Source: Dehalococcoidales bacterium (GTDB lineage: Bacteria; Chloroflexota; Dehalococcoidia; Dehalococcoidales; UBA2162). From it: a DNA stretch of 24,827 bases. Where the stretch lies: contig JAZFUC010000020.1 of the NCBI GenBank assembly GCA_036446995.1, positions 1 to 24,827 of the forward strand, given 5' to 3'. A program made the position numbers and the translations under genes. Of the stretch, positions 2,982-9,566 are shown piece by piece (position 1 is the stretch's first letter; the number at the start of each line of letters is the position of its first letter). The notes under the pieces were generated by a model. It was given only the letters and a program-made list of their open reading frames with translations, did not search any database and was not told the origin of the DNA.

Positions 2982-3506
2982 CTAAGGTGTGACTTGAATA
3001 AGCTTTTTAAGGCCAACTTCAATACTTTCGGTATTCGGGAAGGCCCCAATTTGCTTTCCCTGGATTATACCATTCTTATCTATGAGGAAGGTAGTGGGGT
3101 ATCCGGTGATGTTATATATTCTGGCGACTCCCATATCCCCATCCAGTAGTACCGGCAGGGTAAGATTAAACTCCCGCATGAAATCTTCTACCTGAGGAAT
3201 GGTCTCTCCGACATTAATGGCCAGTAATGCCAGTCCCCGGTCCGTCCACTCCCGGTGCACTTCTTCCAGGTAACCCATTTCATCACGGCAGGGGCCGCAC
3301 CAGGTTGCCCAAAAGTTAAGCAATACTACTTTTCCACGGAGATCGCCAAGGTTGACCATCTCTCCCTCCAGAGACTGCAGACGGAAATCCGGCGCTATCT
3401 CCGATACCCTGGTACCTGTTTCCCCTGGGGATGAAGTAGTGCAGGCTGAAATCAATAATACAATAGTTAATAACACCGCCGCCGCGGTTGACACCACTTT
3501 ACTCAA
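2982..3506 (-). CDS. TlpA/ResA-like thiol-disulfide oxidoreductase, predicted lipoprotein
   Basis: Signal peptide with lipobox LISA-C22, APDFRL, LLNFWATWCGPC, YPTTFLIDKNG. TTG start with GAGGG RBS. Confidence 0.9.
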   Translation of the reverse strand: MSKVVSTAAAVLLTIVLLISACTTSSPGETGTRVSEIAPDFRLQSLEGEMVNLGDLRGKVVLLNFWATWCGPCRDEMGYLEEVHREWTDRGLALLAINVGETIPQVEDFMREFNLTLPVLLDGDMGVARIYNITGYPTTFLIDKNGIIQGKQIGAFPNTESIEVGLKKLIQVTP

Positions 3507-3536
3507 TAAATGCCCTCTTTCCGAGTAAGTCTAACA

Positions 3537-4241
3537 TTAAATCGTCGCCAGTAGAATCAGCTTGTTCATAATAACCAGAATACCCAGGGCTATCATTAAG
3601 AGGCCGCTGAAGATATAGATTATCCGGGAGTAGCGCTGGATGCGCTTCAACAGCGGGGTAACGGCATCGAAGGCAATTCCCACCACCAGGAAGGGAAGCC
3701 CCAGCCCCAGAGAATAAATGGCCAGCAGGTAAGTACCCTTCCAGACCGTCGCGGTACTGCCGGCCAGGGAGAGAATAGCCGCAATCTGCCAGCTGAGACA
3801 GGGTATCCAGGCAAAACAAAAGATAGCGCCGATAAGGAAGGAGCGCGAGTAGCTTCTGCCCGAACCGGAGGATATATTCAGATGTCTTTCATAATTCAGC
3901 CAGGGGACTTTCAGGGCCGCCAGCATTACCAGGCCGAATATTATTAACAGGCTGCCGACAATATACCGGATGACGACGGTATAAGAAATGAGGACCGAGC
4001 CGAGGAGACCGGCGCCGGCGCCCCATAAACTGAATATGATAGAGAAACCAACGACAAAACTAAGCGAGTGGAGGAATATCCGGAGCCGTTCCTTCTTGAT
4101 TTCAGTATCCAGTATCTCCGGTCCGGCCATGCTGGCAATGTAGACCGGCACCAGTGGCAGAACGCAGGGGGAAAGGAAGCTGGCCAGCCCGGCGACAAAA
4201 GCAAAACCTAAAGCGGCTAAAAGTGACGCATTTTCAATCAT
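3537..4241 (-). CDS. ccdA: CcdA/DsbD-family transmembrane disulfide reductase
   Basis: AFVAGLASFLSPCVLPLVPVY motif, about six hydrophobic segments, second Cys in WIPC, YSLGLGLPFL; adjacent to a TlpA-like gene. Confidence 0.9.
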   Translation of the reverse strand: MIENASLLAALGFAFVAGLASFLSPCVLPLVPVYIASMAGPEILDTEIKKERLRIFLHSLSFVVGFSIIFSLWGAGAGLLGSVLISYTVVIRYIVGSLLIIFGLVMLAALKVPWLNYERHLNISSGSGRSYSRSFLIGAIFCFAWIPCLSWQIAAILSLAGSTATVWKGTYLLAIYSLGLGLPFLVVGIAFDAVTPLLKRIQRYSRIIYIFSGLLMIALGILVIMNKLILLATI

Positions 4242-5658: not shown

Positions 5659-6543
5659 TTACAGCCCGGCGGCGGCCAGGATATCAGGCACTCTTTCCTC
5701 TCTACCGATAGCCATAATATGGACGCCGTCACAGATAGACTCTTCCTTGATGGCTTTTATCATCCGGCCGGCAATCTCGATGCCGGTTTGTAAGGCTTTG
5801 CCTTTTTCGGCCCCGGCCATTTCATCGATAAGCGCCTGGGGAACAAAGATACCGGGGACATTCTCGTTCATAAACCGGGCCATCCTGGCTGAAGTCAGCA
5901 CCACTATTCCGGCCAGGATTTTAGTGTTAAGCGGGCGGGCATATTCCATGAATTTTTTAAGGTTATCTATGTCGTAGACCGCCTGGGTCTGGAAAAACTC
6001 GGCTCCGACGGCCACTTTTTTCTTGAATTTAAGCAGCTGGGGTTCGATTGGGTCCGCTTCAGGGGTGACAACAGCTCCGGCGCAAAACTCAAAGGGGCCG
6101 TCAAGGTCATTGCCTCCGAGGTCTTTACCTGATTCCATCAGACGCACCGTTCTGAGCAGCTGCACCGAATCGAGGTCGAAGACCTGCTTGGCCGCCTTGT
6201 GGTCGCCGACTGTTATCGCGTCGCCCGTCAGGCAGAGCACATTCCTTATCCCTCTCTCGTAAGCGAAGAGGAGGTCAGCCTCCAGGGCCATCCGGTTGCG
6301 GTCCCGGCAGGTCATTTGCAGAATGGGCTCCCCGCCCTTTTCCTTGATTGCCAGGCACACACCCAGCGAAGGATAACGCATCTTCGAGCTCTGGTTATCG
6401 GTGGCGTTAAGGGCGTCAACCTTGTCCTTGAGCAAATCGATGTGATGGAGAGTCTGCTCCATGTTGGTTCCCTTGGGGGGACCAATCTCTGTGGTAGTTA
6501 CGAATTTACCGGAGTTTAAAACTTCTCTAAAAGGTGTAGCCAT
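5659..6543 (-). CDS. metF: Methylenetetrahydrofolate reductase, FAD subunit (MetVF type)
   Basis: EIGPPKG, ATDNQ, QMTCRDRNR.AL, LCLTGD, FFQTQ and HIMA motifs; directly follows metV. Confidence 0.95.
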   Translation of the reverse strand: MATPFREVLNSGKFVTTTEIGPPKGTNMEQTLHHIDLLKDKVDALNATDNQSSKMRYPSLGVCLAIKEKGGEPILQMTCRDRNRMALEADLLFAYERGIRNVLCLTGDAITVGDHKAAKQVFDLDSVQLLRTVRLMESGKDLGGNDLDGPFEFCAGAVVTPEADPIEPQLLKFKKKVAVGAEFFQTQAVYDIDNLKKFMEYARPLNTKILAGIVVLTSARMARFMNENVPGIFVPQALIDEMAGAEKGKALQTGIEIAGRMIKAIKEESICDGVHIMAIGREERVPDILAAAGL

Positions 6544-6556
6544 TGTTCCTCCCCCG

Positions 6557-7201
6557 TTACTTGATAGCGAGTTTTCCGGGTTTCACTACTGCCTGATAAT
6601 TTTTAGGCGGTTGTTCTTTTTCAATAAGGTCAAGCCTGTCCTGTTTTTTCAGGCGGTTATATATCAGCGTCCAGGCGCAATCCTTGTCCGGGTCCACCTC
6701 ACACTTGCCCTTATTTGTGCCTCCGCAGGGGCCGTTCAGCAGGCCTTTGGCGCAGGAAGTTACCGGGCAGATGCCGCCGGTCCAGGCCAGGACGCATTCT
6801 CCGCACTGGGAGCAGACTTCGTCCAACACGCCCTCCAGATTTTCCTTGCCGATAAAGAGAGTATTCAATGCCGGAAAAACCGGTTTTTCATTGAATTGCG
6901 CTACCTGATGCACTCCGTAAGAGCAACTCATCACCAGCAGGCAGTCGGCCTGCTGTATTTCTTCGTCGCTCGCTTCGAGGGCGTACTTGGTTAATTCATC
7001 ACAGGCGGTGGGGATGACCATCCAGCCGGGCACCGTCTTACCTTCGGCTTCCAGCTTGTCCTTCATCTCAAGGACCTCGGCTTTGCCGCCGGTGTGAAGT
7101 GCCGTGGCGCAGGTACCGCAGCCGATAATATATACGGACTTGCACTTGCCCAGGAATTCCTTTATCTCTTCAAACGGTTTTTGTTCCGTAACAGATAGCA
7201 T
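6557..7201 (-). CDS. metV: Methylenetetrahydrofolate reductase Fe-S subunit
   Basis: N-terminal GCGTCAT..TGG and SCSYG; C-terminal CSQCGEC..GGICP..CAKGLLNGPCGG...CEV....CAW Cys-rich domain; 214 aa. Confidence 0.93.
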   Translation of the reverse strand: MLSVTEQKPFEEIKEFLGKCKSVYIIGCGTCATALHTGGKAEVLEMKDKLEAEGKTVPGWMVIPTACDELTKYALEASDEEIQQADCLLVMSCSYGVHQVAQFNEKPVFPALNTLFIGKENLEGVLDEVCSQCGECVLAWTGGICPVTSCAKGLLNGPCGGTNKGKCEVDPDKDCAWTLIYNRLKKQDRLDLIEKEQPPKNYQAVVKPGKLAIK

Positions 7202-7213
7202 TACTTCACCACC

Positions 7214-8413
7214 TTAATCTACTCTAATTCGTTCTTCAAAAGCGTTCCTGAAATGCTGCAGGCTGTCCATCACCGGGTTGGGGGCCGCCTGTCCCAGACC
7301 GCACAGCGAGGAGAGCGTCATCGCGCTGGATAATTGTTCCATGACCGTAATATCACTCTCTTCACCCTGACCGCGGGTAAACTTTTCCAGTATTGTGACC
7401 ATAGCGGCAGTGCCTTCACGGCAGGGAGAACACTTGCCGCAGCTTTCCTCGGCCAGGAATTCCATGGTGCGGTAGAGGATATCAACCACATCCCGGCTCC
7501 GGTTAAATACGGTAACTGCCCCGGCGCCGAGGATAGTCTCAAATGAAAGTTCCGTGTCCAGCATTGTCTCCGGCACGATTCTGCCGGTGGCCCCGCCAAT
7601 CTGGACCAGCTTAACATTTTCCCCGCCGGCCAGGTCCACCACCAGCTCTTTCAGGGTGCTGCCCAGCACAAGTTCATAGACGCCGGGCCTGGTTACATCC
7701 CCGCTGACGGAGAAGACCTTGGTGCCCTTGCTGCGCTCGGTGCCTTCCCGGCTGAACCATTCTCCGCCGTTCCGGATGATGGGGGGGATATTCATCAGCG
7801 TCTCTACATTGTTAATGATCGTCGGTTTGGCTCTCAGCCCCTGGGTCGGAGGGAACGGGGGGCGGGGACGCACTTCTCCCCGTTTTCCTTCTATAGAGTC
7901 CATCAGGGCTGATTCCTCACCACAGATATAAGCGCCGGCTCCTTCTCGGACCTCGATATTTATACCGGCCAGGAAACCCCTTTCCCCGGCTTGCTTAATA
8001 GCCTGATTCAGAAGGTCCAGCAGGTAATGGTATTCAGCTCTAAGGTAGATATAGCTCTGTTTGGCCCCGATGGTCAGGGCGGCGATAGCCAGTCCCTCAA
8101 CGAGACTGAACGGGTCATTCTCCAGCATATACCTGTCCTTGAATGTCCCTACCTCGCCTTCATCAGCGTTGCAGATGGCGTATTTTTCGTCACCCGGCGC
8201 CTGGTAGGCCATCTCCCATTTTACTCCGCAGGGGAAGCCGGCCCCTCCCCGCCCTCTCAGGCCGGAAGTTTTAAGTTCTTCAATTACCTGCTCCGGGGTT
8301 AGCTCGTCACGGACTTTCCGGAGGGCCTTGAAGCCATCCTGTTCCAGGTAGCTGTCAATATTCCCGGGATCGACAATTCCGCAGTTTTTTAATACTATCC
8401 GCTTTTCCGGCAA
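7214..8413 (-). CDS. NuoF/HydB-like FMN/NADH-binding subunit, short form
   Basis: SGLRGRGGAGFP, CNADEGE.GTFKDR, GAGAYICGEESAL, INNVETL, SLBB domain and ESCGKC.PCREG...SLCGLG [4Fe-4S] (C325, C328, C331, C371). 399 aa; TTG start with AGGAG RBS. Confidence 0.93.
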   Translation of the reverse strand: MPEKRIVLKNCGIVDPGNIDSYLEQDGFKALRKVRDELTPEQVIEELKTSGLRGRGGAGFPCGVKWEMAYQAPGDEKYAICNADEGEVGTFKDRYMLENDPFSLVEGLAIAALTIGAKQSYIYLRAEYHYLLDLLNQAIKQAGERGFLAGINIEVREGAGAYICGEESALMDSIEGKRGEVRPRPPFPPTQGLRAKPTIINNVETLMNIPPIIRNGGEWFSREGTERSKGTKVFSVSGDVTRPGVYELVLGSTLKELVVDLAGGENVKLVQIGGATGRIVPETMLDTELSFETILGAGAVTVFNRSRDVVDILYRTMEFLAEESCGKCSPCREGTAAMVTILEKFTRGQGEESDITVMEQLSSAMTLSSLCGLGQAAPNPVMDSLQHFRNAFEERIRVD

Positions 8414-8434: not shown

Positions 8435-8866
8435 TTATTTGTACTCTTCAAGAATCTGTGATATTTTCCCGGGGGTCAGATTCCCGTGAACATCATCATT
8501 AATCAGCATTGCCGGTGCTTTATCACAGGCGCCGATGCAATTGGTCAGCTCAAACGAGAACCGCCGGTCGGCCGTGGTCTGGCCCGGTTTAATGCCGATT
8601 TCCTTTTCTATGCTTTCAGCCACCGATTCGTAGTTTTTCAGGTGACAGGGAAGACTTTTGCAAATTCTGATTATATTCCTGCCCTGCGGTCTGGTTGAAA
8701 GGAATGAATAAAAAGTGGCCACCCCGTACACGTCACTCCGGGACATATCCAGGGTTTCAGCCAGTTCTATCATCGTTTCTTCGGAGATATAGCCTTCTTC
8801 ATCCTGGGCTTCTTTTAACAGCACCAGCAGGTCTTCAGGAGTTTTGCCTTCAGCAATATTAGTCAT
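8435..8866 (-). CDS. NuoE/HydC-like [2Fe-2S] subunit
   Basis: LKEAQDEEGYIS, VYGVATFYS, ICKSLPCHLK and TNCIGACDKAPAMLIN (four Cys ligands); 143 aa. Confidence 0.93.
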   Translation of the reverse strand: MTNIAEGKTPEDLLVLLKEAQDEEGYISEETMIELAETLDMSRSDVYGVATFYSFLSTRPQGRNIIRICKSLPCHLKNYESVAESIEKEIGIKPGQTTADRRFSFELTNCIGACDKAPAMLINDDVHGNLTPGKISQILEEYK

Positions 8867-8888: not shown

Positions 8889-9566
8889 CTATCCCTTGAT
8901 AATCAGGGGAGGCCCTTGCTTTTTCTCACCGATTGCTAGCGGTGTGGTCAGGGCGCCGGTGGGACAGACGGGAATACATTTTCCGCAGTCCCTGCAGACC
9001 TCTTTGTTCAGCATCTCGTCGAAATCAACCACTACCCTGGAATCAAAACCCCGGTAGGCGGTACCGAATACCCGTTGTCCAACTACCTCGTTACAGACCC
9101 GGATACAGCGGCGGCAGAGAATGCACTTGGTCATATCGCGGGTAACATAGGGGCTGACATCTTCGATTTGAGAATAGCGTTTCGCGGTCCGGAAGCGGGA
9201 CAGTCCCACATCCAGGTCGGCTGCTACCTTGCGCATTTCACAGATATTGGCTTTTTCACAGAGAAAGCAGGAACCGCAATGGCTGGCCTGGAGCAGTTCC
9301 ATTATCACTCTCCGTGTCTCGAGCACCTTGGGAGAGTGGGTACTGATGACCATCCCCTGGCCCACAGGAGTATGACAGGAGGCCGCCAGCAGTCTGGCGC
9401 CCTCCACCTCGACAACGCAGACCCGGCAGGCACCGGTGGGGGCCAGGCCCTTGATGTAGCACAGTGTGGGTATATCTATGCCCCGGTCCTGGGCTACCTC
9501 AAGGATGGTTTTGCCTGAATCGGCGGTTACTTCTTCGCCGTTTAATGTAAAAGTGACATCGCTCAT
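8889..9566 (-). CDS. Stand-alone NuoG/HydA/FdhA N-terminal Fe-S module, no catalytic domain
   Basis: [2Fe-2S] C36/47/50/64; His-ligated [4Fe-4S] H96/C100/C103/C109; two [4Fe-4S] from CILCRRCIRVC and CRDCGKCIPVCP. Stops at 225 aa (TAG), with an in-frame TAA four codons later. Confidence 0.9.
   Translation of the reverse strand: MSDVTFTLNGEEVTADSGKTILEVAQDRGIDIPTLCYIKGLAPTGACRVCVVEVEGARLLAASCHTPVGQGMVISTHSPKVLETRRVIMELLQASHCGSCFLCEKANICEMRKVAADLDVGLSRFRTAKRYSQIEDVSPYVTRDMTKCILCRRCIRVCNEVVGQRVFGTAYRGFDSRVVVDFDEMLNKEVCRDCGKCIPVCPTGALTTPLAIGEKKQGPPLIIKG

Follow-up and report, generated by a model that had tools for sequence, protein, structure and literature searches.

The electron donor of MetVF-type methylenetetrahydrofolate (methylene-THF) reductases, and whether energy is conserved at this step, constitute a long-standing question that bears on the bioenergetics of acetogens and of the subsurface (PMC8760232, PMC8515935). 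One type, the 'X-type' (group III) MetFV-NuoEFG reductase, was predicted from genomes with Dethiosulfatarculus sandiegensis as the type organism, and was reported to be widespread in Chloroflexi and Desulfobacterales; its pentameric complex is hypothetical (Yi et al., 2021; PMC8515935). A literature search returned no biochemical study of a NuoEFG-MetVF enzyme, the only mention being that of Yi et al. (2021). Here, a locus with this gene arrangement was analyzed in a 24,827-nucleotide stretch of DNA (the window; positions 1 to 24,827 of the forward strand of contig JAZFUC010000020.1, assembly GCA_036446995.1) from a Dehalococcoidales bacterium of the phylum Chloroflexota. The protein in question is a NuoF-like flavoprotein of 399 residues (P0001; 7214..8413, minus strand), which consists of an FMN/NADH domain (FMN, flavin mononucleotide), a shortened SLBB domain and an N3 [4Fe-4S] domain. 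The motifs and domain architecture observed, together with the gene content, the place of the protein in phylogenies and a gene order shared with other loci, are consistent with this protein being the NADH-oxidizing flavoprotein of a compact three-subunit diaphorase that feeds electrons to MetV-MetF without bifurcation, and we regard this reading as rather likely. A carbon-fixation step in an uncultured Dehalococcoidia bacterium would then probably be driven by NADH alone.

How can a bifurcating NuoF-type subunit be told from a non-bifurcating one? Bifurcating beta subunits were found to have alanine or glutamate at Thermotoga maritima HydB position 232, methionine at 234, phenylalanine at 367, a GGPSG motif at 427-431 and additional iron-sulfur domains, whereas their non-bifurcating counterparts have threonine or serine, then lysine, serine or alanine, then tyrosine, and lack GGPSG (Losey et al., 2020; PMC7311640). 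The Bfu family has been defined by the extra clusters of BfuB, which non-bifurcating homologues do not contain (Schut et al., 2022; PMC9304861). In addition, a 2026 study of a fungal hydrogenase-NuoEF complex, the NuoF of which was reported to have the features of the non-bifurcating class, demonstrated experimentally that the complex is non-bifurcating (PMC13556243). In the protein encoded in the window, GTFKD (residues 89-93; 8135..8149, minus strand) supplies T90 and K92, the non-bifurcating states of positions 232 and 234, and GAGAYICGEE (residues 158-167; 7913..7942, minus strand) supplies Y162, the non-bifurcating state of position 367. GGATG (residues 273-277; 7583..7597, minus strand) stands where bifurcating beta subunits have GGPSG. 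The interval 7583-8146, singled out in a preliminary description made from the DNA letters, thus corresponds to residues 90-277.

The T. maritima HydB positions were used as given by Losey et al. (2020), and residues were aligned with four solved bifurcating B subunits and with Escherichia coli NuoF. In HMMER alignments, the B subunits from A. mobile (7t2r_B), A. woodii HydB (7q4v_B), C. saccharolyticus Nfn (9bov_B) and S. ovata Stn (8oh5_B) were all observed to have GAFMD, GAGAFVCGEE and GGPSG at the matching positions; E. coli NuoF has GTYKD, GRYIC and GGAGT in the corresponding columns. The NuoF-like protein is non-bifurcating on all five of the features listed by Losey et al. (2020). T90, K92, Y162 and GGATG are invariant across 121 homologues at 71-99% identity (G273 in 120 of the 121), indicating that the signature is not due to chance. 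The preliminary description had named these three motifs and listed the residues that discriminate the two classes; every motif is present as it stated, its list agrees with the published one, and its proposed comparison with A. woodii HydB placed bifurcating states in that protein and non-bifurcating states in the NuoF-like protein.

The domain architecture of the NuoF-like protein leads in the same direction. The open reading frame (ORF) begins with a TTG start preceded 8 nt upstream by GGAG, and homologues share this start point (MPEKR). The maximal open frame of the gene is 406 residues. The end of the NuoE-like gene lies 21 nt before the start, and the metV start lies 12 nt past the stop, with gaps of 12-22 nt throughout the module and MetV. 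These short gaps, together with the frame limit, exclude an additional N-terminal [2Fe-2S] domain or C-terminal 2x[4Fe-4S] domain. Pfam detected solely Complex1_51K (PF01512; residues 48-210, 144.9 bits), with an intact glycine-rich loop (GAGAYICGEE), a partial SLBB domain (residues 233-266, matching positions 1-33 of the 55-position profile with 27.0 bits, the cut-off being 27) and NADH_4Fe-4S (PF10589; residues 311-394, 105.8 bits). No match to a C-terminal 2x[4Fe-4S] domain was obtained with Pfam beyond residue 394 of 399, and no N-terminal thioredoxin-like [2Fe-2S] domain was found, the alignment beginning at residue 3 of the query against residue ~115 of BfuB. The ligands of the N3-type [4Fe-4S] cluster, C325, C328 and C331 (7421-7441) and C371 (7301-7303; 7301..7441 overall, minus strand), are invariant in two alignments. 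The absence of both extra domains, as first described from the reading frame, is therefore borne out by the Pfam results, the frame limit and the gene spacing.

The same genome provides an internal control. The source genome is a metagenome-assembled genome (MAG) of 1.27 Mb and 72.6% completeness, and a PF01512 search of it yielded two genes, both NuoF-like. The second of these, on contig C45, encodes a protein of 643 residues that is 45% identical to the query, is extended by 136 residues at its N-terminus and carries GAFMD, GAFVCGEE and GGPSG as well as a 2x[4Fe-4S] domain at its C-terminus. There (L005:54-2644), genes for a NuoE-like protein (152 residues) and BfuB (643 residues) are followed by the first part of an FdhA-like gene. 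Contig C30 (L136/L140) begins with an FdhA-like N-terminus that is near-identical to that on C45, though not the same; a molybdopterin domain comes next, containing a single in-frame TGA that likely encodes selenocysteine. The two FdhA copies are either strain variants or paralogues, and the C45 and C30 genes probably encode, from their sequences, a Bfu-type bifurcating formate dehydrogenase. Since a canonical BfuB and the compact module are encoded in one genome, the organism keeps both kinds of module. Two other assignments of the compact module were considered and rejected. The role of formate dehydrogenase partner was set aside because the FdhA of this genome already includes a NuoG-like N-terminus and is encoded after BfuC-BfuB; as the N-module of complex I it does not fit, because its NuoG-like protein has only 225 residues and NuoD is not among the genes found. 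Searches of this genome, at 72.6% completeness, detected neither PF00346 (NuoD or the Ech large subunit) nor RnfD or MvhD.

The relationship between signature and architecture was surveyed in a family set of 156 sequences, comprising 150 representatives of 50%-identity clusters (one fragment having been dropped), the query, four close homologues, E. coli NuoF and the BfuB of the source genome. Among sequences with a C-terminal extension of at least 60 residues, 33 have the full bifurcating signature, 14 are mixed and 2 are non-bifurcating; among those with no such extension, the corresponding numbers are 3, 42 and 62. Thus, the bifurcating signature co-varies with the C-terminal ferredoxin domain across the 156 sequences. 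In the FastTree phylogeny, every full-signature sequence falls inside one 58-row clade (support 99), which is enclosed in an 80-row clade (support 97), and the query and its kin lie outside the latter. In an IQ-TREE phylogeny of 75 rows, the query was placed outside a 30-row Bfu clade (95 in the Shimodaira-Hasegawa-like approximate likelihood ratio test, SH-aLRT) that contains all full-signature rows and the BfuB of the source genome, and the compact clade received SH-aLRT values of 96-98; over both trees, the SH-like support of the compact clade is 95-98. The NuoF-like protein is a near outgroup of the Bfu clade and not a complex I NuoF. Within the compact clade, the proteins linked to MetVF nest inside those linked to a xanthine-dehydrogenase (XDH)-family enzyme in the IQ-TREE phylogeny.

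The compact NuoG'-NuoE-NuoF module forms a distinct clade marked by three loop deletions relative to BfuB-type proteins and E. coli NuoF (7537..7966, minus strand): 8 residues after G150 (junction 7963/7964), 4 residues after G264 (7621/7622) and 6 residues after E292 (7537/7538). The deletions do not occur in E. coli NuoF or in nearly all other family representatives. The preliminary description had noted a SLBB region a few residues short; this shortening is real and belongs to the wider pattern of three deletions. An AlphaFold2 model of the protein (mean predicted local distance difference test, pLDDT, 89.3; predicted template-modeling score, pTM, 0.88) places all three in loops separating secondary-structure elements, with the core intact. 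The fold was also considered as a discriminator between the two classes and was dropped, given template-modeling (TM) scores of 0.89-0.96 to both.

The remaining subunits are encoded on the same strand. The NuoE-like protein is a thioredoxin-fold [2Fe-2S] subunit of 143 residues (8435..8866, minus strand; PF01257, 168.7 bits), and its gene precedes the NuoF-like gene in every orthologous locus examined except L125, where no NuoE match was found. Upstream of it lies a truncated iron-sulfur subunit of 225 residues resembling NuoG and the N-terminal part of HydA (8889..9566, minus strand), which contains a [2Fe-2S] domain, a NuoG-type 4Fe-4S region and a 2x[4Fe-4S] ferredoxin-like domain, and in which the catalytic domain is absent. 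Downstream, MetV (214 residues; 6557..7201, minus strand), which begins 12 nt past the NuoF-like stop codon, has the NGPCGG motif described for MetV (PMC8515935), and MetF (294 residues; 5659..6543, minus strand) is the sole MTHFR-family match in the genome.

In the mechanism proposed here, NADH would transfer a hydride to the FMN of the NuoF-like subunit, and single electrons would then travel by way of the N3 [4Fe-4S] cluster, the NuoG-like subunit with its four clusters and MetV with its two [4Fe-4S] clusters, finally reaching the MetF flavin, where methylene-THF would be reduced to methyl-THF. The module appears to lack both a second outlet to ferredoxin and the features of HydB/BfuB-type bifurcation, which argues for simple NADH:methylene-THF oxidoreduction with no energy coupling at this step. 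We infer complex formation, this electron path, specificity for NADH and independence from ferredoxin. The NAD couple has an E0' of -320 mV. That of methylene-THF is about -200 mV (PMC8515935), a gap that favors the reductive direction. Under standard conditions, the step would release about 23 kJ/mol (-23 kJ/mol), none of it conserved. Methyl-THF oxidation with NAD+ would conversely be hard and would depend on some other driving force or on the NADH/NAD+ ratio being very low; the preliminary description had drawn the same inference on direction.

The window as a whole is one long minus-strand Wood-Ljungdahl cluster, in which the module lies between acsE and metV within a 17-kb operon. The gene order is fhs, cooC, folD, acsD-like, acsA (carbon monoxide dehydrogenase), acsB, acsC, acsE, NuoG-like, NuoE-like, NuoF-like, MetV, MetF, DUF3786 and MobA. 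Past mobA, DsbD-like and thioredoxin/AhpC-like genes occupy 2982-4241; at the same place in the closest syntenic relative (L003:12356-16801) are a methylmalonyl-CoA mutase, a B12-binding protein and a glyoxalase-family (epimerase-like) gene, followed by a carboxyltransferase gene that both share. Homologues of the NuoF-like protein with a named source are Chloroflexota/Dehalococcoidia MAG proteins. Within the same taxonomic order, there are complete single-contig genomes of 1.4-1.9 Mb that do not contain the NuoF-like gene. Of the matches listed in a pattern scan of genome contigs ([IL]CNADEGE, GAY[IV]CGEE), 79 were distant NuoF genes and one, L011, was a true orthologue.

Ten further loci, whose flanks are unrelated (L001-L004, L009, L011, L130-L132 and L134), keep the order NuoG'-NuoE-NuoF-MetV(-MetF), and the adjacency of module and MetV holds with different flanks and without acs genes in L001, L004, L009 and L131. 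Short-form loci outside an acs cluster (L001, L002 and L004) were observed to carry a HisKA/HATPase sensor kinase of 475-489 residues between metV and metF, and two response-regulator genes after metF. Compact orthologues also adjoin an XDH-family enzyme in 6 of 301 sampled Desulfobacterota genomes (L120-L125), and one Chloroflexota genome (G380) has two XDH-type loci (L133 and L135). These XDH-linked orthologues are 54-67% identical to the query and have the same three deletions and the same motifs, except for alanine at position 90 in one. Downstream of the module, the Desulfobacterota loci encode, where read, a [2Fe-2S] subunit of ~199-216 residues and a molybdenum subunit of 817-848 residues, with a flavin adenine dinucleotide (FAD)-binding subunit following in the two loci checked; L133 and L135 have only the large XDH-family subunit, directly after the NuoF-like gene. 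In L123, NuoG' and NuoE are apparently fused (390-residue ORF). The occurrence of the same module with either a MetVF or an XDH-family partner is the behavior expected of a generic diaphorase, and the compact module thus looks like a portable NAD(H) diaphorase.

A second kind of MetVF operon occurs in other genomes. MetV orthologues occur in 36 of the 301 Desulfobacterota genomes, and in all of the best 30 loci (L144-L173) the gene directly upstream ends in a GltD/NfnB-like domain. All ten of the upstream genes checked encode NuoF::GltD fusions of 1037-1056 residues with an N-terminal extension of 135-152 residues and with GAFMD, GAFVCGEE and GGPSG; in the one fusion run against Pfam, the extension contains a thioredoxin-like [2Fe-2S] domain. 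NuoE precedes the fusion and, in the one cluster examined fully (L126; genome G001, contig C49), is itself preceded by an 848-residue FdhA-like NuoG, so that the long-form operon there reads FdhA-like NuoG, NuoE, NuoF::GltD (~1043 residues), MetV and MetF. Genome G001, from Desulfobacterota, was observed to have three MetVF sets with three redox partners (L127, L128 and the NuoF::GltD form). Its second set comprises BfuB (642 residues), an HdrA-like/NuoG-like fusion (1083 residues) and an FAD-domain::NuoE fusion (303 residues), and its third a 1480-residue GltD/HdrA-like multi-domain protein.

Both forms also occur in Chloroflexota, where 30 MetV loci comprised 5 with a short NuoF, including that of the window, 4-5 with a long fusion and 20 others. 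The long form was found in Dehalococcoidia in L185, L187, L188 and L209. Genome G522, which has 1.4 Mb and belongs to the same order as the genome of the window, carries both a short form (L186) and a long form (L209), which suggests that the two modules do different jobs. The MetF of the window is 69-76% identical to MetF proteins encoded beside NuoF homologues in Desulfobacterota and Dehalococcoidia. MetF of the window and of its nearest relative (L003) were found to be 70-76% identical to long-form MetF and only 41-53% identical to other short-form MetF, while identities to both groups are 58-77% for NuoF and ~53-62% for MetV (loci compared: L003, L130, L132, L134, L001, L004, L011 and L185-L188). 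This MetF pattern, unlike that of NuoF and MetV, suggests that the operon is a mosaic in which metF may have been exchanged between the short and long operon types.

Several points weigh against a non-bifurcating module. The sole published comment on this gene arrangement guesses bifurcation (Yi et al., 2021; PMC8515935), clostridial MetVF by itself accepts electrons from reduced ferredoxin with a micromolar Km (PMC8515935), and the residues that discriminate the two classes are correlative and were derived from 17 sequences (Losey et al., 2020; PMC7311640). Sequence scores favor solved bifurcating B subunits (up to 428 bits) over Thermus Nqo1 (365) or FdsB (326-340), and the structural model matches bifurcating and non-bifurcating cores equally (TM 0.89-0.96). 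'Mixed' sequences are common (56 of 156), among them the MetV-linked relative P0128 with alanine at position 90, and the incompleteness of the genome makes the absence of Rnf, Ech and Hdr weak evidence. The non-bifurcating reading itself draws on sequence comparison. In an alternative reading, the complex would bifurcate or confurcate by a mechanism other than that of HydABC/Bfu, coupling the reduction to ferredoxin or a different low-potential acceptor, for example with the [4Fe-4S] clusters of MetV as a ferredoxin port. Electrons would be split at the FMN of the NuoF-like subunit, with the [2Fe-2S] cluster of NuoE as the low-potential branch, or at the flavin of MetF, and the reaction would be 2 NADH + Fd(ox) + methylene-THF -> 2 NAD+ + Fd(red) + methyl-THF (Fd, ferredoxin). 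Such an enzyme would use the 120-mV drop from NADH to methylene-THF that is otherwise wasted in an organism near the thermodynamic limit, and the sequence of its NuoF-like protein is nearer that of the Bfu clade than that of NuoF from complex I. However, known bifurcating enzymes with a NuoF-type subunit all carry extra clusters (Schut et al., 2022; PMC9304861), all signature positions of the window protein are non-bifurcating and invariant, and true Bfu-type modules are retained in the same and sister genomes at places where bifurcation would be expected, in G522 even beside a second MetVF. We therefore consider bifurcation by this complex improbable; were it true, a fifth class would be added to the flavin-based bifurcating systems, and the means by which MetVF-type reductases conserve energy would be settled.

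The choice of partner and of nucleotide allows two further explanations. Given that orthologous modules stand beside an XDH-family enzyme instead of MetVF, and that inside a 17-kb Wood-Ljungdahl operon neighborhood alone names no partner, the compact diaphorase might be free-standing and serve several partners (MetVF, carbon monoxide dehydrogenase/acetyl-CoA synthase, molybdoenzymes), or the adjacency might reflect co-regulation only. This explanation is unlikely: the adjacency of module and MetV survives without acs genes, the NuoG-like subunit stops where a catalytic domain usually starts, suggesting docking of a partner, the gaps of 12-22 nt suggest co-translation, and the FdhA of the genome already has a NuoG-like N-terminus and BfuBC partners of its own. 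A module specific for NADPH, or for both nucleotides, would be compatible with the absence of bifurcation, and the step would then be supplied from the pool of NADPH. Sequence does not settle which nucleotide members of this family prefer, and HndC annotations among the homologue matches reflect an early naming of some relatives as NADP-reducing, but the glycine-rich loop with Y162 and E166/E167 matches that of NADH-using E. coli NuoF (GRYICGEE). In that protein, the second glutamate reportedly excludes NADPH, as judged by mutagenesis. A module specific for NADPH, or for both nucleotides, is considered unlikely. The plain, non-bifurcating NADH subunit proposed in the preliminary description remains the favored reading, supported by the motifs, the domain layout, the trees, the BfuB paralogue and the result on the fungal complex. 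The pairing of MetVF elsewhere with a long NuoF::GltD fusion of bifurcating signature adds to this support, since it shows that the two alternatives both exist.

For one uncharacterized enzyme type, the window thus suggests, at the level of sequence, a plain NADH module, whereas the single guess in print was bifurcation. Of more use may be the finding that closely related MetVF genes come in two wirings, with either a compact module of non-bifurcating signature or a long NuoF::GltD module of bifurcating signature, the MetF of the window being of a subtype otherwise seen with the long module. The short/long pair in G522 constitutes a natural paired system for asking whether the signature predicts ferredoxin coupling and whether a methylene-THF reductase can bifurcate. 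For sediment Dehalococcoidia, an uncoupled NADH-linked step, if the plain NADH reading is true, would favor reductive operation of the pathway.

How does the compact module compare with known systems? As in the X-type, genes for NuoE, NuoF and NuoG homologues lie directly upstream of metV-metF in the window, in a conserved order; unlike the single type of Yi et al. (2021), the operons described here have compact and long architectures with opposite signatures, and the X-type reductase, as predicted from genomes, comprises at least two architectures. A. woodii RnfC2-MetVF ('3S type'), according to PMC8515935, likewise combines MetVF with a dedicated NADH-binding flavin/iron-sulfur subunit, and is NADH-dependent and non-bifurcating, which is the behavior predicted for the complex of the window. 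Its subunit is a single MetV-RnfC fusion, instead of the three subunits NuoG', NuoE and NuoF, and no gene for RnfC2 (a MetV-RnfC fusion) was found in the window. Compared with the N-module of complex I (NuoEFG), where NuoG is full-length, the NuoG-like protein of the window has 225 residues. The best matches of the NuoF-like protein are BfuB/HydB subunits of HydABC, NiFe-HydABCSL, Stn/NfnABC and Fdh-Bfu (7p5h, 7q4v, 7t2r, 8oh5 and 9bov), with 42-48% identity and TM scores of 0.93-0.96 over the core, but the protein lacks both of their extra cluster domains and their four signature states, and lies outside the Bfu clade. With Syntrophomonas wolfei Hyd1B and S. aciditrophicus HydB (Losey 2017, 2020) and with NuoF, Nqo1, FdsB and HoxF, it shares the FMN/NADH domain, the N3 cluster and the T/K/Y signature. 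Like these proteins, it has neither GGPSG nor a C-terminal ferredoxin domain, and in the window a NuoE-like partner is encoded next to it; they serve a hydrogenase, a formate dehydrogenase or a membrane arm, whereas the partner of the window protein would be MetVF.

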